Source: Entomomonas sp. E2T0 (GTDB lineage: Bacteria; Pseudomonadota; Gammaproteobacteria; Pseudomonadales; Pseudomonadaceae). Taken from it: DNA of 64,000 nt. A program made the position numbers and the translations under genes. The DNA lies in assembly GCF_025985425.1 (NCBI RefSeq), contig NZ_CP094972.1:2963540-3027539 (forward strand), written 5' to 3'. Below the pieces are notes generated by a model, which did no database searches, was not told the origin of the DNA, and saw only the letters and a list, made by a program, of their open reading frames with translations. The stretch's first letter is position 1, and each line of letters opens with the position of its first letter. Positions 21,039-36,264 of the stretch are shown piece after piece.

Positions 21039-21599
21039 TTAACGTCTTACTGGTCGTTTTTGTAGTTTACGTTGTAATGTACGACGATGCATACCTAATG
21101 CTCTAGCAGTAGCAGAAATATTACCATCATACTCACTAAGCACACGTTGGATATGCTCCCATTCCAAACGATCAACTGACATTGGACTATCTGGAATCAG
21201 CTTATCAACATCCACATGCTTAGCCAATAGTGCTGCTAGTACATCATCTACATCTGCTGGTTTACATAGGTAATTACAAGCACCCCTTTTAATGGCCTCA
21301 ACTGCGGTAGCAATGCTAGAATAGCCTGTCAAAATCACAACACGCATTTCAGCATCAACTTCTAGTAACTTAGGTAATAATACTAGACCAGATTCACCAT
21401 TCATTTTTAAATCAACAACAGCATATTCTGGTGTATCTTCATTAGCTATTTTTAATGCTTCATCAGAAGTACTAGCAATTGAAACACGCAAACCTTTTCG
21501 AGCCAATACACGCGCCATAATATGAGTAAAGGTTTCGTCATCATCCACTAATAATAAATGTGGTTGCTCATCCCCATCAAATAAGACTTCTTCTGTCAT
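21039..21599 (-). CDS. RegA/PrrA/ActR (RoxR)-family response regulator with Fis-type HTH
   Basis: Receiver domain ([10 protein letters not shown]…D-loop…KPADVD) plus a C-terminal [21 protein letters not shown] helix-turn-helix, which is typical of RegA/RoxR. Confidence 0.8.
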
Positions 21600-21609
21600 A
21601 ATAACTCTC

Positions 21610-22911
21610 TTATGATTGATTTTTTATGCGTGGTAATTGCAATATTGCTATTGTCCCTTTTTCTTTATGATTATACAACTTCAAACTACCACCTGCACGA
21701 ATAACACTCACCTGACTTAAATATAAACCTAAACCAAAACCTTTTTCTTTAGAAGAAACAAAAGGCTTAGCCATGCCATCTTCCATAAACGAAGGTATAC
21801 CTGATCCTTTATCATGAATACTAATAGTAAAATCATTTTTAGTCCATGCTAACTCAATGTCTATCTCTTCTGGGCAAGCATCAGCGGCATTATTTAAAAT
21901 ATTTAATAGTGCCTGACTAAGAATAGTATGAGGTTTAAATATAGGCTCATCACTCTTACCTAGTAGCTGATAGTGGTAACTTACCTCTGGACGCATCAAA
22001 TGCCAACGTTGCAAAATGGTATGTAACCAACTAGTAACCGTTTGCAGTTTTATATCATGTAGTCGTTCAGCTTCCGCAGCTCGGACTAACTGTTGCAAAC
22101 TACCTTTACATAGCTGAACTTGGCTTTGCAATAATGCTAAATCATCCTGTAATGCTTTATCAGTATAAGTATCCTGTAAATCCTTTAATAATACATTCAT
22201 GGTAGATAGTGGAGTACCTAGCTCATGTGCAGCGCCTGCTGCTTGTGCTGCTACCGCTAGTAACTGTTGATCATGCAAACCTTCTTCACGCCATTCTGCT
22301 ATTTTCTGGTCTTGTTGTCGTAAAGCAATCGCCATTTGACTTACAAAAAAACCAATCAATACAGTAGAAAATGTAAAACTTAACCACATTCCTACTAAAT
22401 GCAAATTAATTAACAATGTTTCGGTATCGCCCGCCCAAACACTCTGGATTTGCAAAGGAATATTCCATATCCATAATAAGCTATAACCTAAAATAGCATA
22501 CCCCACTAAACACAGTGTATAGAACCAAGGTAAGGTGGCAGCGGCAATAGTAATAGGCACTAAAAAGTAAGATACAAAAGGATTAGTCGCCCCTCCTGTA
22601 CAATATAAAAGTAAACAATGGATGGTTAGGTCATAAGAGAGCTGTATAGTGTATTCAATATCAGAAACAGGCCATGAAATATAAGTTAATCGAACTACGG
22701 TTAAAATACATAAAATAGCTGACCCAACAAAAGAAAAAATAAGCACATCCCAAGGCAAATCAAATAGCTTATAAATATAACAAATAGCTACTGAAATAAT
22801 CTGTAAAGACAATACTAATACTCGTATTGAAACTAGTCCCCATAAATTAAGCCGACTAGCAAAAAACCATTTAGCTGGAACTAACATAAATTCTCTTATT
22901 AATCCTAACAA
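21610..22911 (-). CDS. RegB/PrrB/ActS (RoxS)-family redox-sensing histidine kinase
   Basis: Six TM segments contain the RegB-specific GGxxNPF motif (GGATNPF). H-box AAHELGTPLS and a conserved redox-box cysteine (QVQLCKGSLQQL) are present, followed by a C-terminal HATPase. Confidence 0.75.
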   Translation of the reverse strand: MLGLIREFMLVPAKWFFASRLNLWGLVSIRVLVLSLQIISVAICYIYKLFDLPWDVLIFSFVGSAILCILTVVRLTYISWPVSDIEYTIQLSYDLTIHCLLLYCTGGATNPFVSYFLVPITIAAATLPWFYTLCLVGYAILGYSLLWIWNIPLQIQSVWAGDTETLLINLHLVGMWLSFTFSTVLIGFFVSQMAIALRQQDQKIAEWREEGLHDQQLLAVAAQAAGAAHELGTPLSTMNVLLKDLQDTYTDKALQDDLALLQSQVQLCKGSLQQLVRAAEAERLHDIKLQTVTSWLHTILQRWHLMRPEVSYHYQLLGKSDEPIFKPHTILSQALLNILNNAADACPEEIDIELAWTKNDFTISIHDKGSGIPSFMEDGMAKPFVSSKEKGFGLGLYLSQVSVIRAGGSLKLYNHKEKGTIAILQLPRIKNQS

Positions 22912-23049: not shown

Positions 23050-24771
23050 ATGAGTACTAAGCAAGTTGCACAAATTGTCATAGAAACTCTACAAGAAGCT
23101 GGCGTAAAGCACTGTTATGGAATTGTAGGAGATACACTTAACTATGTTACTGATGCTATTCATAAAAGCCAGATTGATTGGATTCATGTTCGCCATGAAG
23201 AAGTAGGTGCTTTTGCCGCAGGTGCAGAGGCTTATTTAACAGGACACCTTACAGCTTGTGCTGGCTCATGTGGCCCAGGCAGTTTACATTTTATTAATGG
23301 TTTATTTGAGGCGCATCGTAATGGTGCACCTGTGGTACTAATAGCCAGTCAAATTGTTACTGCTCAACAAAATACTGATTTCCCACAAGAAGTAGACTTT
23401 AAAGCAGTTTATAGTACTTGCTCGGTTTTCTGCGAACAGATTATTAATCCCAAAGAAGCTAGAAAAATAACAACAATGGCTGCACAAACTGCACTAAACA
23501 AAAAAGGGGTTGCTGTTATTATTTTACCTGCTGATATCAGCCAAGCAGAAGTAGTTGATATACCTGCTATTAAAACTTATCATCCTAATCCTATTACTAT
23601 ACCTAATAATGATGAGTTACAGCAAATAGTTAGTCTTATAAAACAAGGTAAAAAAATAGGTATTTACGCCGGCCTTGGTTGTCAATATGCTCATGATGAA
23701 CTCATTGCCTTAGCCGCAAAACTCAAAGCACCTATTGCACATACCTCACGTGCTAAAGATTTTGTAGAGTATAATAACCCCTATAACGTAGGTCTAACAG
23801 GTATGTTTGGTATGGAGTCTGGTTTTCACATGGTAAAAAACTGTGACACCTTACTACTACTAGGTGCAGACTTTGCTTGGTCACAATTCTATCCAGATAA
23901 AGCCAATATTATTCAAATTGATAAAGATGCTTCTCACTTAGGTAGACGTCACCCTATTGCTTTTGGTGCAGTAGGTGATATTAAAGCAACCTTAACTGCA
24001 TTATTGCCATTAATCAGTGAAAGAGAAGATACTAGCTTTTTAGAACAACATCAAAAAATGCACATTAATGCAACCACTAAACTAGATAAAAAAGCACAAA
24101 GTACTAAAAGTGGCCAAATTCATCCTCAATATCTAGTAGAACTACTAGATCAATATGCTACAGATGATGCTCTATTTACAGCCGATGGTGGCTCTCCCAT
24201 GGTATGGCTAATGCGTCACATTAATACTAATGGTAAACGCCGTACCCTTACTAGCTTAAAGCATGGCACAATGGCTAATGCGATGCCACAAGCTTTGGGT
24301 TTACAAAAAGCCTTTCCTAATCGCCAAGTTATCTCTATTTCAGGGGATGGTGGTTTAGCTATGTTACTAGGTGATTTATTAACAGCTATTCAAGAAAACC
24401 TACCTATTAAAATAGTAGTACTTAATAATGGTTCACTGAACTTCGTAGAACTAGAGCAAAAAGTTGAAGGTTTAGTAGATAACTATACTGATTTAAAAAA
24501 TCCAGATTTTGCAAAACTGGCAGAAGTAATAGGGTTTTATGGACGTAAAGTTACAGAGTCACAAGACTTAGAAGTAGCTGTTAAAGAATTCTTAGCACAA
24601 TCAGGCCCTGCCCTCTTGGATGTACATACCAGTCCCTATGAACTAGTTATGCCACCTCAAATAGAAATGGGGCAAGTTATGGGCATGGCTTTATATGGAG
24701 CAAAGGCAACTCTGGCAGGTCGAGGTAAAGAAGTAGTTAGTTTATTAGTAGATAACTTTTTGAAAAAATAA
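23050..24771 (+). CDS. poxB: pyruvate dehydrogenase (quinone) / pyruvate oxidase PoxB (ThDP/FAD enzyme)
   Basis: Collinear with E. coli PoxB along its whole length (VRHEEVGAFAAGAEA…CAGSCGPG…GDGGLAMLLGD…). 573 aa. Confidence 0.85.
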   Translation: MSTKQVAQIVIETLQEAGVKHCYGIVGDTLNYVTDAIHKSQIDWIHVRHEEVGAFAAGAEAYLTGHLTACAGSCGPGSLHFINGLFEAHRNGAPVVLIASQIVTAQQNTDFPQEVDFKAVYSTCSVFCEQIINPKEARKITTMAAQTALNKKGVAVIILPADISQAEVVDIPAIKTYHPNPITIPNNDELQQIVSLIKQGKKIGIYAGLGCQYAHDELIALAAKLKAPIAHTSRAKDFVEYNNPYNVGLTGMFGMESGFHMVKNCDTLLLLGADFAWSQFYPDKANIIQIDKDASHLGRRHPIAFGAVGDIKATLTALLPLISEREDTSFLEQHQKMHINATTKLDKKAQSTKSGQIHPQYLVELLDQYATDDALFTADGGSPMVWLMRHINTNGKRRTLTSLKHGTMANAMPQALGLQKAFPNRQVISISGDGGLAMLLGDLLTAIQENLPIKIVVLNNGSLNFVELEQKVEGLVDNYTDLKNPDFAKLAEVIGFYGRKVTESQDLEVAVKEFLAQSGPALLDVHTSPYELVMPPQIEMGQVMGMALYGAKATLAGRGKEVVSLLVDNFLKK

Positions 24772-24772
24772 A

Positions 24773-25342
24773 CTAGCTTTCATTTCTAAGGGCTAATGCC
24801 CTTAGAGATTGATTATTTACTGTTAGCCAAGCAAACAAAATACCACTCAACATTCCTGTGATATGCCCCTCAAAGGATACCTCTGCACTTGGTAATAAAC
24901 CAAAAACAAAACCACCATATAACATTATTACTATAATGCAGATTAGGAAATTTTTTATAGTCCTATCAAAATAAGCATTACCCAACAGTAATCCCCATAA
25001 ACCAAATATCCAACCACTAGCACCAATATGGGAGGCTGCTCGCCCTACCAACCATAATAATAAGCCACCCACAACAATTATAAAAATACTAGCGACAATA
25101 AAATAGCGTATGGAACGCAACATACAAAGCCATGCTAAAACCACAAAACAAGATAAATTGCCTAGTAAGTGCAATACTCCACTATGAATCCAAGGAGAAG
25201 TAAAAATTCCCCATAATCCATCTAACCTACGAGGAATAACACCATAATTTGCTAAGCCGCCAGCTAAAACCATATTAATAATCTGAACACCTACCATTAA
25301 TAGGGTAATAGCCAGTACTATCCGTACTTGTTTACTCAGCAT
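24773..25342 (-). CDS. rhomboid-family intramembrane serine protease
   Basis: Six TM helices. Rhomboid catalytic GxSG motif (HIGASGWIFG) and a downstream His in a TM helix. The start overlaps the stop of the upstream 1819-aa gene by 11 nt. Confidence 0.75.
   Translation of the reverse strand: MLSKQVRIVLAITLLMVGVQIINMVLAGGLANYGVIPRRLDGLWGIFTSPWIHSGVLHLLGNLSCFVVLAWLCMLRSIRYFIVASIFIIVVGGLLLWLVGRAASHIGASGWIFGLWGLLLGNAYFDRTIKNFLICIIVIMLYGGFVFGLLPSAEVSFEGHITGMLSGILFAWLTVNNQSLRALALRNES
24786..24805. terminator. bidirectional hairpin between convergent poxB and the rhomboid gene
   Basis: CTAAGGGC-taat-GCCCTTAG. The hairpin lies inside the last codons of the minus-strand rhomboid ORF and 15 nt after the poxB stop. 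Confidence 0.45.
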
Positions 25343-28300
25343 CTTCTTGATAAGAACTTTCTGTAGGTTTACCTGCTTTTACTTTCGTATCAATCGATTG
25401 TTTAGGGTGCATACCTACATGCTGTCCTAATAGCTTCAGCTCTGTAATAATATCTTGCATACGCTGATGATTACGTAAATCTAAATCTAGCTTTTTATCC
25501 ATGGTTTTTAACATAGGCATAAAGCTATATTCTAGTGTTTCAGCTAATGTAGTTAATACTGCGTCTAAACCAGGCACAGGTTGATTTACCACTTGAATAT
25601 TAGTTTCTGGCTTATCTTGTAAAGCCTCACTAATATGAGCTAATGGTTTTATCACTTTATCCCATGGGGCTGGCTCTGGCTCTTTATCCATTACGTCGGC
25701 TATATGGGCTATACCAGAAAGCATTTTATCCCAAGGCGCTGGTTCTGGTTTTTGTTTTAAAGCAGCTATCATTTCAGCAAACTGCCCTATTACACTTTCC
25801 CATGGTGCACGCTCAGGCTCAGGTCGTGTTGCAATATTTTTAACTCCCTCAGAAAGATCAACTAACTGAGCTACCACACGGTTACCAATATTGTCGTCAC
25901 CACCCATCGACTTATTACGCAAGAAATCACGTTTAATTTGTTCCCAACGCTCTTGTTGCTGCTCAGTCATATTACCGCGTATTTCAGCCAGTTTAAGTAG
26001 ATTCTCTTCAGCACCTGTCGTTAATAGCTGTGCTTCACCTTGATAATGGTCTTCAAGCAATTGCATCAACTCTTGCTCATTCATTACCGCCGTAATTTTT
26101 TCCGCCAGCTTATTCATATTACGATAACTACCTTGTAACTTGAATGGCGGTTCAACCCGATATTTATCAGCTTGGGCGGCACTAGCAATATATTGTAAAT
26201 TTACTCTGTATACTAAATCACGAGCTCTCATTAAGTGTTGTAAGGTAGCAACAATTTCATTAACTTCAGCTGTACTGTAATCATAACTTAATTCATTACT
26301 TGAGAAAGGCTTACCTTCAGCTTTATCAATAAAACGGTAAAGGTCTGCCATATCACGAGTAGCTAAAGGCGCTAGTATAGGATTAGAAGTTAAACAGTTT
26401 TCAAGATAGCTAAGACGGAATACATCTTCCATGCCGCCTAATACATCACCTAGATTATAGATATCCGCACGGTTAGCTAACATATCAGGAATCTTAAAGA
26501 CTTCACCAGACTCTGTATAAGGGTTACCTGCCATGATGACACAGAACTTTTTACCACGCATATCGTAGGTTTTAGTTTGGCCTTTCCAAACACCTTCAAT
26601 ACGACGAGTACCATCACAAAGCGAAATAAATTTTTGTAAAAACTCAGGGTTAGTATGTTGAATATCATCCACATACAGCATTACATTATTACCCATTTCC
26701 AATGCTAGATTAAGTTTTTCCAACTCTTGTCTAGCAGTAGCATTAGGTGCTTGTGCTGGATCGACTGAAGTAACTTCATGACCAATTGCAGGGCCATTAA
26801 TCTTCATAAAGATTAAACCTAAACGATTAGCCACATACTCCATCAAGGTTGTTTTACCATAACCGGGTGGAGAAATAAGCATTAATAACCCCATAAGGTC
26901 AGTACGTTTGTTCTCCCCCACTGTACCCATTTGTTTGGCTAAGTTATCGCCAATCACACCTAAGTAAATGTCATTGATTAAGCGGTTACGAACAAATGAA
27001 CTCAATGGCTTTGGCTTAAACTCTTCTAAACGCAGGGCATTTCTTTCCCGATTAATAACTTCTTGACGGTATTCTTGATAACGTTTGAAATTAGGTACAA
27101 ACACTTGTTGCTGATAACCAAAGCGCTCATAAAAATCATCAATCCCTAGAATCATTTTGGTATTTTGAATGCGCGAATGTTCTCCCATCAAACCTTCAAC
27201 AGAGAAACGCAAATCCATTTCTGTAAAACGCCAAATTACACTACTATCCAATAAGCTAAGTGCTACTGCTTCTGGAATATAGCTTTGTAAAGCAGTTAAG
27301 TCATCATCGGTTTCAATCACTACATCATTATCATTAGCCTGACAAAGTGCAGTAAACCATCTTTCCGCTAACTCCCAACGAGCTAAAGTACGGCCTTGTA
27401 AGTTAGCTAATGACTGTTGAAAACCAAGCCACATTTGTGCTGCTTCTAAACGTTTCTGCAGTGTTTCCATTAATTGTTTAGCATAACGAGTAAAGGTAAA
27501 CTCAACATTTACACCAGCAGAAAGCACAGCTACTAAATATTCAGCTGCCATCGAACGCTCTTGCTTATCAACAGGTAAGCCATGAACTTCTAAATAGCTA
27601 TCCATTGCTTGTGCAATTTCTATTTGTAAATCTTTTAATGCTTGTTGGCTTCCAAATAACTTAGCCATATTCATTGCAGTATGAGCACGTTCAGGCCATT
27701 TTTCAGCTTCAATATTTTCTTTCCAACGTCCCCAAAATAGCGTTGCAAAACCACGTGCTAATGGTGGGTAACGTAATAAACCAACACTACGATGTAATGG
27801 AATTAATTTACCTAACAATAAACAAGCATCATGATCATGAATGCCTCGCTCATAGCCATCACGATAACGAGGAGCTGCAAAATCACGTACCGTTTTTTCT
27901 AATTGAGCAGGATCTTTTAACTGTTGCTCTAACAGATCAATGCTTAAACCATCTTTATTTTGTTCTGCTGTTTGTAAAATAAGTCCAGCTAAATATTCAC
28001 CACGATATAAATCAGGTGATTCTGAGTCTGTAGTATATTGCCAATAGTCCCGTAGCTCATCTAACTCCGTAGCCCCTAATGATTCAAAATAATCAGTACC
28101 TGTTAAGTGAGTATAAAGTTGCTCACCTCGTGGCATAATGGTTAAATCAAGCTCTTGCGTATTAACACTAAAGCGATGGCGAGGGCCTAATTTAATAACA
28201 TTACCACCCGCTTCAAAGATTTCTGACTTATCTCTTAAACTACGAATAGCCTGATCTTTAGTTGATTTTAAACGGGCATCAAGATCATCTGCCCTTACGC

Positions 28301-30791
28301 TATCTTTTAACTCTCTTAATTTGTCTGATAATTCACGTAACTTTAAAGCTAAAGGGTCACCTGCAAAGAATGCATTTAACTCTTCTTGATTAGTGAAACG
28401 TTCTGTACGACGTTTCATACTCTCTAAAATACGTAGTGCAGCATCTTGTAGAGATTGTGCTTTACGTTGTCTTTCATCCAATAAAGCTTGTTTATGAGTA
28501 TCAAATGTCTCTAATAATTCTTCACGTTTAGCTAGAATATCAGTCAAAAATTCTTCATTATCACTAAACTGACTTTCTAACTCTTCCAACTGTACTAATA
28601 AACGAGATAATTGATCATCACAACGCTCAGGGTCAGTTGCTAAAGACAACGCATTAGTAATTGATTGTGTGAACAGTGTAAATTGAGCACCAAATTGGGC
28701 AACTGACTCATTACTTCGTAATGACTTACGACGTTGTTCAGACCTCGCTCTAGCTTGATTTAAGCGGCCATAAATGGCTGAAATAGCCTCTACAATTAAA
28801 GTACGTTGATTCGCATCATCAATTTTTAATGTACTCATCAATTGCGAAAGTGTGTCAAGATCATCGCCTAGCCCTTTTAAGCCAGTCAACGGTTCTTCTA
28901 ATTGCACAACTGTTGTAGCAGCTTGCGCTTCAGCATCTAAAGCTTCTAACTTTTCTGAGAATGGTTCTAATGCTTCTGGTGTTGATAAAAATACACCTGT
29001 TGCTTCTGAAATATGCAACTGTGATTTTTTTAACTGTTCTTCTAAAAAATCAACACGTGCCACATCCATATAACGGTAGTCACGTATTGTTAGTAAGTAT
29101 CCTAATTGCTTAGTGATAGCATGCAATGCATCTACATACTCCTGAATAGTTTCCCAACTATCTGGACGTAATGAAGTAATTAATGTTTTTTGTTGTTCTT
29201 CTGCTTGTACTAGTGTTTCGGCAGATTGGCGACGAATACTTTCTACTTTTTCATATTCATCTAACACCGCTTCACTAGTTGCAGCAATTTCTCGAACTGA
29301 TTGAACAATATCGCCGCAATGATTATCAGTCAACCAACTATAACTATCTAATAATTTACGAATATTTTCACGAATCAAGTTATAGTGATTAACTGATACA
29401 GATTTACTATCAATGTCTCGACCTAAACTATAAAGATCAGAAATACCTCTTACTAATTCTGGATTGCCAATACGCCCCCAAAATGTATTACGGGTAGGTT
29501 GTCTGGCAGCAAACTCTTCTGAAAGATAAGGTGTTTGCCATATTTGCATTGGATGAACACGAATAGGTTCACTACCTTCACTGGCAAAAATAACCATTTT
29601 GCCATCATCAAAACGCGCATAACCATGCCCCAAAATAGGATTTTGGAGGCGTCTTTCAATCATATTATAGGTAAATAACGCACTACGCCCTTCACTTGGT
29701 TCATAAAAGATATAAAGTACATCTTCACCATTAGGAGATTTTACAGAACGCTTGAATCGCATCCCCTCCATAGACTGATCAAACTTTTTATGCTCACCAT
29801 TTTGCAAATAATATCCACCAGGGAAAATAATGCCATGATCCTCTGGTAATTGAACACAAGACTGACCAATAGCATCTATTCGCTCTACATTTTGTGTAAT
29901 GGTGTTATAAACTAGATAACGCCATATATCTTCTCTATAAGGTAATATTTTTAATAAAACTAAACTACCTAATTGAGCATATTCGATGATCGCGTCATCT
30001 ACTGACTGTGTTTTATCCGTTACAGGTTCGCTATAGATACCTAAACCTGTTGTTGTATTATTCTCTACTTTAATGGTTAGATCACCACCTGTAGTTTCTA
30101 CAAACACAGTATCTAAAATATTAATATGAGGAAACTTACCATTTACCCGCATATCGCGGTTAGCTTTTTGCCACTCAAAATCATAAGGAGCAGGCAGAGC
30201 AATATCACGCTCGCCACGATTATCAATATAACTAATTTGCTTATGATCTGCAGACAGTGCCCAACGGAAAACACGGATATCCGTTATCTTGTCACCCATC
30301 TGGAAGCTAGCTAATAACTTACCATTATTTTGGGTCAGTTGTAATAAACGTGCATCCTTATAGTATGCATAAAGCTCTGTATAATCTCGTACAAAATTAG
30401 GGTCTTTTAAAAAAGTGCCCTCTAGCTCTACGTGCTCTACATCAAAGCCTTCTTCTACCTCAATTAATTTATACAGTGAAAAAACATCTTCAACTCGAGT
30501 TTCTTTTTTAAGGCCTAAAAATACATTGTATCCAAACAGTAACCAATCACCTGCGCGCACAATATCACGAGCAACACTATTATTTTCAGTACGAATACGA
30601 ATTCGCCCAATCACTTCCATGTCACTACGTTTAAACTCATCTAAACGCTTTTGATTAATAATTTCTATTTGCTTGCGTAATTGCTGACCTTGATCTTGTA
30701 AACGCTTATTTAACACTTCATAAGCGCCACCTTCAGCAACTGCTTTATCTAGTAATTCTTGCTCTTGTGCTACTGCTTGGGAATCAACCAT
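25332..30791 (-). CDS. giant (1819 aa) AAA+ ATPase-domain protein of unknown family
   Basis: A single P-loop core sits near residues 1300-1460: Walker A ISPPGYGKTT (nt 26847-26864), Walker B NVMLYVDD about 60 aa later, sensor-1-like CVIMAGNP, and Arg-rich LANRAD. This is the MoxR/dynein-type AAA+ order, not the split SMC/SbcC arrangement. A long coiled-coil-prone charged middle region spans roughly residues 500-870. Three tandem approximately 23-aa repeats ([KRE]PEP(ER)APW[ED]..) lie at residues 1656-1727. Confidence 0.6.
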   Translation of the reverse strand: MVDSQAVAQEQELLDKAVAEGGAYEVLNKRLQDQGQQLRKQIEIINQKRLDEFKRSDMEVIGRIRIRTENNSVARDIVRAGDWLLFGYNVFLGLKKETRVEDVFSLYKLIEVEEGFDVEHVELEGTFLKDPNFVRDYTELYAYYKDARLLQLTQNNGKLLASFQMGDKITDIRVFRWALSADHKQISYIDNRGERDIALPAPYDFEWQKANRDMRVNGKFPHINILDTVFVETTGGDLTIKVENNTTTGLGIYSEPVTDKTQSVDDAIIEYAQLGSLVLLKILPYREDIWRYLVYNTITQNVERIDAIGQSCVQLPEDHGIIFPGGYYLQNGEHKKFDQSMEGMRFKRSVKSPNGEDVLYIFYEPSEGRSALFTYNMIERRLQNPILGHGYARFDDGKMVIFASEGSEPIRVHPMQIWQTPYLSEEFAARQPTRNTFWGRIGNPELVRGISDLYSLGRDIDSKSVSVNHYNLIRENIRKLLDSYSWLTDNHCGDIVQSVREIAATSEAVLDEYEKVESIRRQSAETLVQAEEQQKTLITSLRPDSWETIQEYVDALHAITKQLGYLLTIRDYRYMDVARVDFLEEQLKKSQLHISEATGVFLSTPEALEPFSEKLEALDAEAQAATTVVQLEEPLTGLKGLGDDLDTLSQLMSTLKIDDANQRTLIVEAISAIYGRLNQARARSEQRRKSLRSNESVAQFGAQFTLFTQSITNALSLATDPERCDDQLSRLLVQLEELESQFSDNEEFLTDILAKREELLETFDTHKQALLDERQRKAQSLQDAALRILESMKRRTERFTNQEELNAFFAGDPLALKLRELSDKLRELKDSVRADDLDARLKSTKDQAIRSLRDKSEIFEAGGNVIKLGPRHRFSVNTQELDLTIMPRGEQLYTHLTGTDYFESLGATELDELRDYWQYTTDSESPDLYRGEYLAGLILQTAEQNKDGLSIDLLEQQLKDPAQLEKTVRDFAAPRYRDGYERGIHDHDACLLLGKLIPLHRSVGLLRYPPLARGFATLFWGRWKENIEAEKWPERAHTAMNMAKLFGSQQALKDLQIEIAQAMDSYLEVHGLPVDKQERSMAAEYLVAVLSAGVNVEFTFTRYAKQLMETLQKRLEAAQMWLGFQQSLANLQGRTLARWELAERWFTALCQANDNDVVIETDDDLTALQSYIPEAVALSLLDSSVIWRFTEMDLRFSVEGLMGEHSRIQNTKMILGIDDFYERFGYQQQVFVPNFKRYQEYRQEVINRERNALRLEEFKPKPLSSFVRNRLINDIYLGVIGDNLAKQMGTVGENKRTDLMGLLMLISPPGYGKTTLMEYVANRLGLIFMKINGPAIGHEVTSVDPAQAPNATARQELEKLNLALEMGNNVMLYVDDIQHTNPEFLQKFISLCDGTRRIEGVWKGQTKTYDMRGKKFCVIMAGNPYTESGEVFKIPDMLANRADIYNLGDVLGGMEDVFRLSYLENCLTSNPILAPLATRDMADLYRFIDKAEGKPFSSNELSYDYSTAEVNEIVATLQHLMRARDLVYRVNLQYIASAAQADKYRVEPPFKLQGSYRNMNKLAEKITAVMNEQELMQLLEDHYQGEAQLLTTGAEENLLKLAEIRGNMTEQQQERWEQIKRDFLRNKSMGGDDNIGNRVVAQLVDLSEGVKNIATRPEPERAPWESVIGQFAEMIAALKQKPEPAPWDKMLSGIAHIADVMDKEPEPAPWDKVIKPLAHISEALQDKPETNIQVVNQPVPGLDAVLTTLAETLEYSFMPMLKTMDKKLDLDLRNHQRMQDIITELKLLGQHVGMHPKQSIDTKVKAGKPTESSYQEDAE

Positions 30792-30914: not shown

Positions 30915-33086
30915 TTAATCATCAGTTTTTGGTGTGTCTTTTTTACCACTACTCGCTACTCGCTCAGCAGTTGCTGATAACAACTGTTGAATTGCTCCTT
31001 GAGCAACAGAGCTGCTATTTACAAAGCCATCAAGTGACTTGCCCACAGCCAATGCTTTAGAGAATTTCTCAAAGAATTCGCCTTCACCACCCACAACATC
31101 AATCTTCGTCTTAGCCAGACCAGCCGCCAATACTTCTGCTTGATCTTTAGCAATTTCTTTATTAGCAGCAATTGCAGTGATTGCTTGTTCGAAGGTTTTT
31201 TCCAATTGTAAACGGAACTCTTCATGGGCACGCGCACTATCAGAAAGAGCATTAAGTGAAGTAAATTTCTCAGCAAGACCCGTTGCTTCTGCTCTCATAC
31301 GTTTTAATAGTACTTCCGCTTCAGCATCACCTACATCACGGCTTACTTTGGCCTTCACGATACCTACTTGTTCTTCACCACGTGCTTGAGCAGATAGCTT
31401 TTCTTCCATCACTTTAGCTTCTACCAAGCCTTCTTTTTCCTTGGCAACAGCAGCAGCTTCAGTCACACGAGCTTCAACAAAACCTTGCTCTTCCTTACCT
31501 TTTGCTTCAGATAGCATAAGCTCCATTTGTACTTTAGCTTCAGCAAGACCTTGCTTCTCATTAGCATCTGCTTTAAATTCAATAACACGCGCCTCTGCTA
31601 AACCTTTTTCTTCAACAGCCTTAGCTTCTGCTATACCTCTTTCAGCCGTTAATTTTGCTTCTACTAAGCCTTCTTTTTCACGTACAGAAGCTTGTACTTC
31701 ACGAACTCTTGCATCCGCCAAACCAGGTGCCGCACGCTCTGCTTGAACACCTTCTGCCAAACGTTTTTGTGACTCCGCTTTTTTCGCAGCCGCCTCTAGT
31801 TCAGCCTGTGCCATATTATTAATTTCAACTGCTTTATGTTTAGATGTCTCTGCATCAGCTTCTGCTTGCTTCACTTGGCGAACTAAATCACGTTCTGCTT
31901 CTGCTTGTGCATCAATAATACTTACTTGTTTAGAGCGGTCAGCTTCTGAAACTTGACGTACTTCTTTAATAGCTTCTTCTTCCTTAGCTACCGTACGTTC
32001 AACAGCCACACGATCACGAATAATATTAGCAATCGCTGTACGCTCTGCTTCTAAGGCTTTTTCTTTATCAATACGTTGTAATTCAACTTCACGCTCACGC
32101 TTAACAATGGCTTCTTGTTGAGCTTGAGTTACACCTTCCTCTTGTTCAACTAACACACGCTTTTTATTTAACTCGGTAACTTCCAACTCACGTTGAGTAT
32201 TAATATCTGCTTTACCAATTTCTTGTTCAGCTTGTTTTTGAGCCACTTCTGCTTTAGTACGCTCTTCAGCTTGAACCTTCTGAGTTTCAGCTTCTTCACG
32301 TGCTTTAGTAGTCTCAATTTCACGTTTTTGTCTATTTTCAGCATCAGCTCTTTGACGCTCTAAAGCTAAAGTAGCCTCTTGAGTTTCAACATTTTTCTTA
32401 GTAATCGCTAAATCTTTATCGCGATCCAATTCATTCGTTTTAACAATTTCAGAAGAAGTTCTTTCAACAATCTTACGGATACCTTCTGCATCCATAATAT
32501 TAGTATTCTTTAAATGCTCAATTGGTGTTTGATCTAAGTAGTCAATCGCAGCATCTTCTAGTGAATAACCATTAAGATCTTCACCGATTGCTTGCATAAT
32601 TTCATCACGAAAACGCTTACGATCAGCAAATAACTCTTCAAAATTAAATTTCTTACCTACTGTTTTTAATGCTTCAGAAAATTTAGCATTAAATAAAGTA
32701 GCTACTGCTGTATGATCTGAGGCACGGTCAGCGCCTACTGATTTAGCTACTTTCAACACATCCTCTTGAGTGGCATTTACTTTAAGATAAAAAGCTACTG
32801 TAATATCAGCACGAATATTATCTTTACAGATTAAACCCTCTGTACCACGGCGATCAATATCCAAAGTAATCAAAGAAATTTTCATAAATTCCTTTTTATA
32901 AATCACTGGATAAACTAATGCACCAGTAAAAGTTACTTTAGGTATTGAAGATAAGGTATTAACAATCAATGCTGTACCTTGTGGCACTTTAATATAAAAA
33001 GACTTTACTATAAGTACACTAACTATAATAAGCCCTACAACAGCCGCAGCTATTATGCCAACAACAGCTAAAATTGACGAAAACAT
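30915..33086 (-). CDS. flotillin/SPFH (band-7) family protein, YqiK-like, with a long repetitive Glu/Ala/Lys tail
   Basis: N-terminal TM helix, then an SPFH domain (…TLDIDRRGTEGLICKDNIRADITVAFYLKV…). Roughly 350 aa of heptad-like EA-rich repeats follow (EKEGLVEAKLTAERGIAEAKAVEEKGLAEARV…). 723 aa. Confidence 0.8.
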   Translation of the reverse strand: MFSSILAVVGIIAAAVVGLIIVSVLIVKSFYIKVPQGTALIVNTLSSIPKVTFTGALVYPVIYKKEFMKISLITLDIDRRGTEGLICKDNIRADITVAFYLKVNATQEDVLKVAKSVGADRASDHTAVATLFNAKFSEALKTVGKKFNFEELFADRKRFRDEIMQAIGEDLNGYSLEDAAIDYLDQTPIEHLKNTNIMDAEGIRKIVERTSSEIVKTNELDRDKDLAITKKNVETQEATLALERQRADAENRQKREIETTKAREEAETQKVQAEERTKAEVAQKQAEQEIGKADINTQRELEVTELNKKRVLVEQEEGVTQAQQEAIVKREREVELQRIDKEKALEAERTAIANIIRDRVAVERTVAKEEEAIKEVRQVSEADRSKQVSIIDAQAEAERDLVRQVKQAEADAETSKHKAVEINNMAQAELEAAAKKAESQKRLAEGVQAERAAPGLADARVREVQASVREKEGLVEAKLTAERGIAEAKAVEEKGLAEARVIEFKADANEKQGLAEAKVQMELMLSEAKGKEEQGFVEARVTEAAAVAKEKEGLVEAKVMEEKLSAQARGEEQVGIVKAKVSRDVGDAEAEVLLKRMRAEATGLAEKFTSLNALSDSARAHEEFRLQLEKTFEQAITAIAANKEIAKDQAEVLAAGLAKTKIDVVGGEGEFFEKFSKALAVGKSLDGFVNSSSVAQGAIQQLLSATAERVASSGKKDTPKTDD

Positions 33087-35649: not shown

Positions 35650-36264
35650 TTAAACTTTTAAGTAATTTTCAAAAGCTTCCGTTGCTTTAATTACGTTATC
35701 TGACAATATTTCAATTTCAAACATTATATTTGAAAGACTTGATTCAGAACTTAGTGCTCCAAACATAATATAAAAATCATTTTCAGCAAGTTTTTCGATA
35801 CCTATAGTCGATAAGGGGAAAAACTTATGTGTTCTTAATACTTCTTCATTAAATGTATTAACATCTTTTACTGCATCTGTTGGCCACAAAATACTTTCTA
35901 CAATGATTTGTTCACCAACAACACTAATAAATACGGGTAAATCACCGAACTCGTGCATGATAATGTGTAAACTTGGGTCTGTCCCCTGTACCAATTCAAC
36001 ACTAGCACCGCCATTTTTAAATAGTTCAACGGCAGATAAAGCATCGAATAATTTATTACTAGTCCACATTGAAACAGCTGCTGTCATATTACTCTCCTGT
36101 GATAATGATTGAGTCATTCCTGCTGGTTGACGTAACTGTTTTTCAACGTTCAGTAACATGCGAGCATGCTCTGGCAGTATCCAAACTTCTTTTTTTATCA
36201 ACCCCTGCTCTCGCAAACGTTGACGGTATAGTCGTTGATAATGTGCTGATGTTTTTGTATCCAT
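35650..36264 (-). CDS. DUF2170 (YjfI-like) protein, first gene of the PspA-like operon
   Basis: 204 aa, soluble. Its position upstream of a PspA-family gene mirrors the E. coli yjfIJ arrangement. The family call rests on this synteny plus general similarity. Confidence 0.5.
   Translation of the reverse strand: MDTKTSAHYQRLYRQRLREQGLIKKEVWILPEHARMLLNVEKQLRQPAGMTQSLSQESNMTAAVSMWTSNKLFDALSAVELFKNGGASVELVQGTDPSLHIIMHEFGDLPVFISVVGEQIIVESILWPTDAVKDVNTFNEEVLRTHKFFPLSTIGIEKLAENDFYIMFGALSSESSLSNIMFEIEILSDNVIKATEAFENYLKV

Follow-up and report, generated by a model that had tools for sequence, protein, structure and literature searches.

What do three tandem copies of a Trp-capped helix contribute to the tail of a giant bacterial ATPase? 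The question is raised by a 64,000-nucleotide stretch from Entomomonas sp. E2T0 (contig NZ_CP094972.1, positions 2,963,540 to 3,027,539), here called the window, in which an open reading frame (ORF) on the minus strand (25332-30791) encodes an ATPase of 1819 aa. Residues 1656-1727 (nucleotides 25611-25826) form three tandem PEPAPW-plus-helix units of about 23 residues, each made up of a Pro-rich linker, a Pro-Trp (PW) dipeptide and an amphipathic helix. The explanation that we prefer, with a confidence a little short of even, is a lineage-specific, old triplication of this PW helix, which would have produced a conditionally folding, multivalent docking tail that binds a protein partner.

The repeat array

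The array reads RPEPERAPWESVIGQFAEMIAALKQ / KPEPAPWDKMLSGIAHIADVMDK / EPEPAPWDKVIKPLAHISEALQD(K). The parts of the C-terminal region are arranged as follows, from the core outwards; percentages for the repeats are mean pairwise identities within the Entomomonas/Ventosimonas clade.

25830..25892, minus strand: helix that closes the conserved core (aa 1634-1654, NRVVAQLVDLSEGVKNIA), just past which the tail-less orthologues stop
25752..25826, minus strand: repeat 1 (R1; aa 1656-1680, RPEPERAPWESVIGQFAEMIAALKQ), predicted helix 1664-1679, 49%
25683..25751, minus strand: repeat 2 (R2; aa 1681-1703, KPEPAPWDKMLSGIAHIADVMDK), predicted helix 1687-1701, the most variable copy, 36%
25614..25682, minus strand: repeat 3 (R3; aa 1704-1726, EPEPAPWDKVIKPLAHISEALQD), predicted helix 1710-1725, 70%, adjoining the terminal module
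25419..25613, minus strand: terminal tail module (aa 1727-1791), KPETNIQVVNQPVPG and then a long helix 1742-1791 (LDAVLTTLAETLEYSFMPMLKTMDKKLDLDLRNHQRM...), from phmmer matches to the tail and AlphaFold2
25335..25418, minus strand: variable C-terminal end (aa 1792-1819), predicted local distance difference test (pLDDT) 32-44, 57% aa identity to the Ventosimonas orthologue

The PW dipeptide is found at only three sites in the entire ATPase (P1663, P1686 and P1709). The Trp residues (1664, 1687 and 1710) are 23 aa apart and their codons exactly 69 nt apart, and the plus-strand 18-mers that code for PEPAPW (starting at 25662, 25731 and 25800) have the same 69 nt spacing. Local alignment using BLOSUM62 gave scores of 41 for R1 with R2, 55 for R1 with R3 and 77 for R2 with R3. 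As a control, the maximum score across 5000 random segments of the same ATPase was 26-27, and the observed scores were equalled by 0/5000 shuffles. When all six frames of the window were scanned for PW[DENQ]x[LIVM][LIVMT], the three repeat sites and one unrelated site were picked out. The positions and the scores, which exceed those of all 5000 controls, thus bear out a preliminary description of the sequence, in which the three tandem PEPAPW repeats were first pointed out.

The same description held that the repetition is visible in the nucleotide sequence. This is true of the 18-mers, but elsewhere the DNA repetition is weak (45-62% nt identity from unit to unit), and Tandem Repeats Finder (TRF) reported nothing when run on the DNA, as the repeat shows up only in the protein sequence. 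As judged from these comparisons, the array is an old protein-level repeat, and not a recent tandem array in the DNA. The low identity between the units implies that the copies have been retained for a long time. A hypervariable (contingency-type) tandem repeat was also considered, and is ruled out by this identity, by the blank TRF result and by the constant protein length in 43 sequences given below. A candidate degenerate fourth unit, KPETNIQVVNQPVPGLDAVLTTLAETLE, follows unit 3, but its similarity to R1-R3 is not significant, and it is part of the separately conserved terminal module.

A length of 1818-1819 aa was found for all 43 sequences of the clade, which form four clusters at 90% identity (E. 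sp. E2T0, E. asaccharolytica, E. moraniae and Ventosimonas-like metagenome-assembled genomes). Three copies are present also in the most distant member of the clade (P0006, 75% identity), and on the sequences available the copy number is fixed in the Entomomonas/Ventosimonas clade. Over the 72 repeat codons, dN/dS (nonsynonymous to synonymous substitution) is 0.033 against locus L001 and 0.137 against locus L008, values which indicate purifying selection on each of the three copies. The repeat block is at the same time the fastest-evolving part of the ATPase, with 58% aa identity to L008 as against 79-97% elsewhere. Even in clade members with only 75% overall identity, each of the three copies retains PW and its hydrophobic face.

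Hydrophobic moments (Fauchere-Pliska scale), calculated for the 18-mers that start at PW, are 0.56-0.64, which ranks them among the highest 0.1-0.6% of 18-mers in the ATPase. The hydrophobic positions of the PW helix, counted from Trp, are 0, +3/+4, +7, +10/+11 and +14. AlphaFold2 was used to predict the structure of two constructs, aa 1251-1819 (with an alignment of 40 sequences) and aa 1625-1819 (56 sequences). The same helices were predicted in both, at 1634-1654, 1664-1679, 1687-1701, 1710-1725 and 1742-1791. The PEPAP hinges between them are non-helical, pLDDT is 42-67, and there is no confident tertiary packing; for the tail alone the predicted template modelling score (pTM) is 0.24 and the mean pLDDT 57. 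The moments and the predicted helices agree with the original observation that an amphipathic helix follows PW in each unit. Separate helices on flexible hinges usually point to elements that become folded when they bind, and the predicted tail would be of this kind.

The PW helix across the family

The ATPase is an orthologue of P. aeruginosa PA3728, with 63-65% identity to Pseudomonas orthologues over 99% of its length, and a first search returned more than 7000 homologues. Tails were compared in 121 full-length homologues, using the region past the conserved GAEENLLKL anchor, and the tails at a further 80 metagenome loci and 20 genome loci were also examined. The 121 homologues were classified as follows.

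One PW helix: 96/121
Three PW helices: 8/121, of which seven are the Entomomonas/Ventosimonas clade and the eighth (P0012) has a unit of ~70 aa triplicated
Two PW helices: 2/121 (P0088 clear, P0116 doubtful)
Tail present without PW: 3/121 (for example P0045, from a cluster of 455 members)
No tail: 11/121, stopping just past the helix VVAQLxDLVESV
Anchor not found, unclassified: 1/121 (P0029)

The PW helix is kept in about 97% of the tail-bearing close relatives, and a single helix is the usual state in relatives from Pseudomonadales and Xanthomonadales, where it sits between the last core helix and the conserved terminal module. The family consensus is [AIVL]-P-W-x-[EQ]-[LIV]-L-A-x-L-[ED]-[RK]-[LIV], and before it comes a linker rich in Pro, Ala and Glu, whose length varies. 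P1709 and W1710 occupy nearly invariant columns of the alignment (A2), and the lone PW of other lineages aligns with R3, which suggests that R3 probably keeps the ancestral role, and that R1 and R2 were added. The preliminary description had expected that copy number could vary between strains. It does not do so among the 43 clade sequences, but it does between deeper lineages, which have 0, 1, 2 or 3 copies.

Two distal modules are paired with the PW helix, namely a Pseudomonas type (...VEVxxPxQPG...SFLPLxxAMDKKIDIDLRTH...) and a Xanthomonadales/Burkholderiales type. In marine gammaproteobacterial relatives the position of the PW helix is taken by a non-PW amphipathic helix, followed by a strongly conserved VEVINQPVPG...MDKKLDIDLRTH module. 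At two marine loci (L012, 7423-12861, and L006, 9944-15349) a long Gln-rich, coiled-coil-like segment (for example QQFEQEQQQFEQEQ) replaces the PW-bearing linker, and the VEVVNQPVPG terminal module downstream of it is almost identical to that of the window.

Arrays of more than one PW helix are rare, and were found only in Entomomonas/Ventosimonas, in P0088/L019 (two copies) and in P0012/L020 (three large units). In the last of these (1918 aa, L020 9945-15701) the ~70-aa unit consists of a PW helix together with the terminal helix module, and the copies are about 80% identical. The P0088/L019 and P0012/L020 expansions are independent of that in Entomomonas/Ventosimonas, and the P0012/L020 one is apparently more recent.

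A phmmer search with the tail against 1.84 billion representative proteins gave 59 matches, all but one of them tails or fragments of the same family, mainly matched through the terminal module, at query positions 90-150. This module is the part of the tail that is conserved most widely. The matches being from the same family suggests that the PW element is specific to the PA3728 family. P0175, which was the sole match with multiple stretches to the repeat region, is an unrelated low-complexity Pro/Ser protein. A word-indexed search with the 180-aa tail alone returned three fragments.

What the tail may bind

Partner docking, which was one of the two roles first suggested for the repeats, stays the most plausible reading. 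The PW helix is Trp-capped, acidic and strongly amphipathic, has 15-16 residues, and follows a Pro/Glu-rich linker in the flexible tail of the ATPase. We suggest that the helices act as conditionally folding docking elements, each of which would fit its one hydrophobic face (W0, +3/+4, +7, +10, +14) into a helical groove on the partner protein. The likeliest partners would be the coiled-coil-rich flotillin that is always encoded with the ATPase, the coiled coil or terminal helix of the ATPase itself, or PspA where it is present. Three hinged copies could give more avidity, or more reach, to an oligomeric lattice, and what the tail then tunes would be how the motor is recruited or regulated, not its core activity.

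Tail-less orthologues bear on what such a tail is needed for. They occur in at least four independent lineages (P0048; P0054; P0078 with P0096; and seven Enterobacterales proteins), and P0054 is 89% identical to a protein with one PW helix (PW1). The genes DUF2170-PspA-NfeD-flotillin-ATPase are retained at tail-less loci L016 and L017, and NfeD-flotillin-ATPase-rhomboid at L015 (Leminorella) and L003; a tblastn search of the tail-less loci found no tail remnant encoded separately. Since the operon is kept by these orthologues, the tail is dispensable. It had been argued at the outset that orthologues which lack the repeats and retain the operon would mark the repeats as a dispensable, low-complexity expansion. 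The first part of this stands, but not the second, given the purifying selection on the repeats and the conservation of PW in about 97% of close relatives. It is concluded that the tail element is probably a dispensable protein-docking element, and not a lipid anchor, in this insect-associated lineage.

A partner was looked for by gene association at about 50 loci with enough flanking sequence. The PspA-DUF2170 dyad does not co-vary with the PW state (15/21 PW1 loci, 13/23 PW0, 2/3 tail-less and 3/3 multi-PW), nor does the rhomboid gene (9/30 PW1 and 9/32 PW0), which suggests that the tail is independent of the co-encoded PspA, DUF2170 and rhomboid proteins. Flotillin and NfeD are always present and are for this reason uninformative in the association test; flotillin, NfeD or the ATPase itself is conceivable as the partner of the PW helix. 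A search was also made for core columns that tail-bearing proteins conserve and tail-less ones have changed. Three were changed in 2/4 tail-less lineages and none in at least 3/4, so that the ATPase itself bears no trace of a docking site that was lost. Neither the gene association nor the core-column comparison therefore brought out a binding partner, and these results all weigh against a docking tail. So do the low AlphaFold2 confidence across the tail, the conservation of R2 at only 36%, by which the extra copies may be weakly constrained, and the repeated loss of the tail, which implies that its function is not essential.

Alternatively, the PW helices might act within the ATPase, by packing on the terminal helix 1742-1791, on a coiled coil or on the AAA+ ring. 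They would then form a small folded domain or an autoinhibitory latch, to which the extra copies would add redundant or alternative latches. This would fit the observation that in every tail-bearing lineage, with PW or without it, a VxV[IV]NxP strand and a long terminal helix come directly after a short amphipathic helix; R3, which lies beside the terminal module, is the best conserved copy by a wide margin, and the spacing of the hydrophobic positions is heptad-like. However, AlphaFold2 predicted no compact fold with either construct, the PW helix is kept in combination with strongly differing distal modules, and the core columns have not decayed in the tail-less lineages. We consider an intramolecular role to be possible, if on the unlikely side.

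The preliminary description offered membrane docking as well as partner docking, and on the present evidence the membrane is disfavoured. On this reading the Trp-capped helices would lie in the interface of the inner membrane, and three copies would provide multivalent lipid binding. The array would then be comparable to the Pro-punctuated 22-mers of exchangeable apolipoproteins and the 11-mers of alpha-synuclein and perilipins, as well as to the targeting helices of MinD and FtsA and helix alpha0 of PspA/Vipp1. The array resembles the apolipoproteins in having tandem amphipathic helices of ~22-23 residues separated by proline, with a very high hydrophobic moment and a Trp at the start of each helix, and its operon partners (flotillin, NfeD, PspA and rhomboid) are all membrane-associated. 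The difference is that there are only three units, which are acidic and have no class-A Lys/Arg at the polar-nonpolar interface. Net charge is -1 per helix (z) and -4 for the 72-aa block, and lipid binding of this kind calls for net positive or interfacial basic charge. The linkers are acidic and Glu/Pro-rich, and E/D is kept on the polar face, the consensus having E/Q at +2 and E/D at +8 with no flanking basic cluster, while bacterial inner membranes are anionic. A HeliQuest-type discriminant (0.944 x muH + 0.33 x z) gives 0.20-0.27, below the threshold of 0.68 for possible lipid binding, and the helices are internal and not at the extreme C-terminus. Membrane docking is for us an unlikely role.

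Least probable of all, and very unlikely in our estimate, is a neutral spacer, that is, an insertion-tolerant linker in which a functionless triplication merely lengthened the tether: the region between the core helix and the terminal module does vary greatly in length and composition (with Q-rich or acidic inserts in some lineages), the tail has been lost at least four times and the repeats evolve fastest, but dN/dS is 0.03-0.14, PW and the amphipathic pattern persist in all three copies of every clade member, copy number is constant, and the divergence of the units at the DNA level shows that they have long been kept.

Docking tails have precedents in other AAA+ proteins. The C-terminal tail of p97/Cdc48 is bound by PUB/PUL cofactors, and proteasomal ATPases carry HbYX tails. 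The element described here differs from such motifs in that it is a helix of 15-16 residues in a long flexible tail, is repeated three times, and is present or absent without tracking the PspA gene. A Trp-centred element outside the ATPase core is also found in PspF, an AAA+ protein on whose Trp-containing W56 loop PspA docks (PMC6003685, PMC3791423), and a PspA homologue is encoded in the present operon. By this precedent a contact with PspA is conceivable, but the co-occurrence data do not favour it.

In MIM1-MIT recognition, the MIM1 helices of ESCRT-III proteins, (D/E)xxLxxRLxxL(K/R) at the C-terminus, are bound by the MIT domain of Vps4. The spacing L-x3-L-x2-L-[KR] of MIM1 is similar to that of W-x-[EQ]-L-L-A-x-L-[ED]-[RK]-L, and both systems have a flexible tail and pair an ESCRT-III-like protein with an AAA+ protein. 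An analogy between ESCRT and PspA-AAA+ operons has been drawn before (PMC11237479). The PW helix differs from MIM1 in being on the ATPase, with the polarity reversed, and internal, and the pattern is generic for amphipathic helices. Pfam-type domain scans detected no MIT domain in the operon products, and the ATPase is closer to the MoxR/MCM/dynein branch than to Vps4. MIM1/MIT recognition as such was therefore rejected, since only the generic hydrophobic spacing matches. A looser version, which we think unlikely, would have the PW helix tether the AAA+ motor to a flotillin/PspA (ESCRT-III-like) lattice as a polarity-reversed counterpart of MIM-MIT, with a copy number of 0-3 tuning scaffold avidity and the recruitment of the motor to stressed membrane.

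One further comparison was made. The clathrin W-box, PWxxW, is recognised by the beta-propeller in the terminal domain of clathrin. Here too a motif that begins with Pro-Trp lies in a flexible region, and the ATPase has an N-terminal DUF3686 region that has been described as beta-propeller repeats (Ravi 2024, PMC11237479). The W-box was rejected because the second Trp is absent (PWESV, PWDKM and PWDKV, with PWx[EQ][LIV] in the family) and because the motif runs into a helix; like the MIM1-MIT analogy, it serves as a lead and no more.

The operon and its neighbourhood

The domains of the ATPase are those of the PA3728 family: DUF3686 (PF12458) at aa 38-484 (E = 2.8e-198, full profile coverage), DUF7902 (PF25472) at aa 606-690 (E = 6.7e-26), and then a single C-terminal AAA+ P-loop module. 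In a Pfam scan the last ~180 residues were covered by no domain. Foldseek with the AlphaFold2 model gave only weak AAA+ matches (MCM, NorQ, CbbQ, BchI and dynein, E about 1e-3), a search of the Protein Data Bank found no relative of the ATPase past the P-loop, and PADLOC gave no defence-system match for it. The gene and its neighbours on the same strand are listed in their order towards the ATPase and rhomboid genes.

35650..36264, minus strand: DUF2170/YjfI (CesT/Tir-like) protein (Pfam PF09938, E = 5.2e-52), counterpart of BacA/PA3732 (PMC11237479)
34928..35632, minus strand: PspA/IM30 homologue (Pfam PF04012, E = 7.5e-48), counterpart of BacB/PA3731 (PMC10948618)
34136..34828, minus strand: short NfeD/YqiJ-like membrane protein, 230 aa, hydrophobic towards the N-terminus and with a soluble domain at the C-terminus (PMC13086221)
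33365..34123, minus strand: extra SPFH/Band-7 paralogue, 252 aa, sharing about 30% identity with the 723-aa flotillin over the N-terminal 187 aa of the latter
30915..33086, minus strand: flotillin-like protein, 723 aa, with an N-terminal transmembrane segment, SPFH and a long E/A/K-rich coiled coil, counterpart of PaFlo3/PA3729 (PMC13086221)
25332..30791, minus strand: giant ATPase (1819 aa + stop), identical to WP_264746115.1 of Entomomonas sp. E2T0 (Pseudomonadaceae)
26502..26885, minus strand: AAA+ P-loop core of the ATPase (aa 1303-1430; Walker A PPGYGKT, 1307-1313), from Pfam AAA_5 and AAA matches
24773..25342, minus strand: rhomboid-family membrane protease, the start of whose gene shares 11 nt with the end of the ATPase gene (25332-25342)

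The locus is the 'bac' cluster of P. aeruginosa (PA3732-PA3729) plus PA3728 (PMC2587700, PMC10948618, PMC13086221, PMC8190622). It is like the bac or PspA-NfeD-flotillin operons of the PA3728 family in its domains and in the order DUF2170, PspA, short NfeD, flotillin, ATPase (PMC2587700, PMC10948618, PMC11237479, PMC13086221), and differs in having three PW helices instead of one, the additional 252-aa SPFH paralogue and the overlapping rhomboid gene. Flotillin and NfeD genes were found upstream of the ATPase gene at 49/50 related loci with enough flank. No sigma-54 site was found upstream of the DUF2170 gene. PA3728 is among the genes that are recurrently mutated in cystic-fibrosis isolates (PMC8190622). 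ATPases of this family are widespread, and the bac operon is linked to biofilm formation and virulence. A Trp-capped helix that has been expanded independently in several lineages is thus a handle for finding the docking partner of the motor, although the Entomomonas triplication alone, as a lineage-specific elaboration within a known, uncharacterised family, is of modest general interest.

The name 'DNA repair ATPase' is unsupported: neither a DNA-repair domain nor a DNA-repair gene context turned up, and the domain content and gene context point to membrane-stress machinery. The label has apparently been taken over from what Pfam says of DUF3686. A literature search gave no mention of DUF3686, and the C-terminal tail or PW helix of the PA3728 family is not described in the literature searched.

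The 723-aa flotillin-like and 230-aa NfeD/YqiJ-like proteins had no Pfam or NCBIfam match at E <= 0.01. Their family assignments seem clear from paralogy, hydropathy and the literature, and current profile libraries appear to miss the subfamilies found here. The 252-aa SPFH paralogue, encoded between the NfeD and flotillin genes, was seen only in Entomomonas/Ventosimonas (L004, L008) among the loci examined. Its occurrence in the same clade as the triplicated PW helix may reflect shared ancestry alone.

The 11-nt overlap of the ATPase stop region with the rhomboid start codon suggests translational coupling of the two genes. Only about 30% of related loci have a rhomboid gene after the ATPase gene. 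Next to the operon on its downstream side, 21039-22911 (minus strand) and 23050-24771 (plus strand) hold genes for a RegB/ActS-type redox sensor kinase, a Fis-type response regulator and a PoxB-like pyruvate dehydrogenase, the divergently oriented PoxB-like gene lying between the other two and the operon.

Small genes related to phospholipase D (PLD) come directly after the ATPase gene or the rhomboid gene at some of the tail-less loci, with a 96-aa PLDc_N protein at L016 (14956-15246) and a PLDc_2 protein at L015 (15787-16470), the latter being the Leminorella locus, where the PLD-family gene is next after rhomboid. This is in agreement with the report that a PLD-superfamily hydrolase is part of the operon in some Proteobacteria (Ravi et al., PMC11237479).

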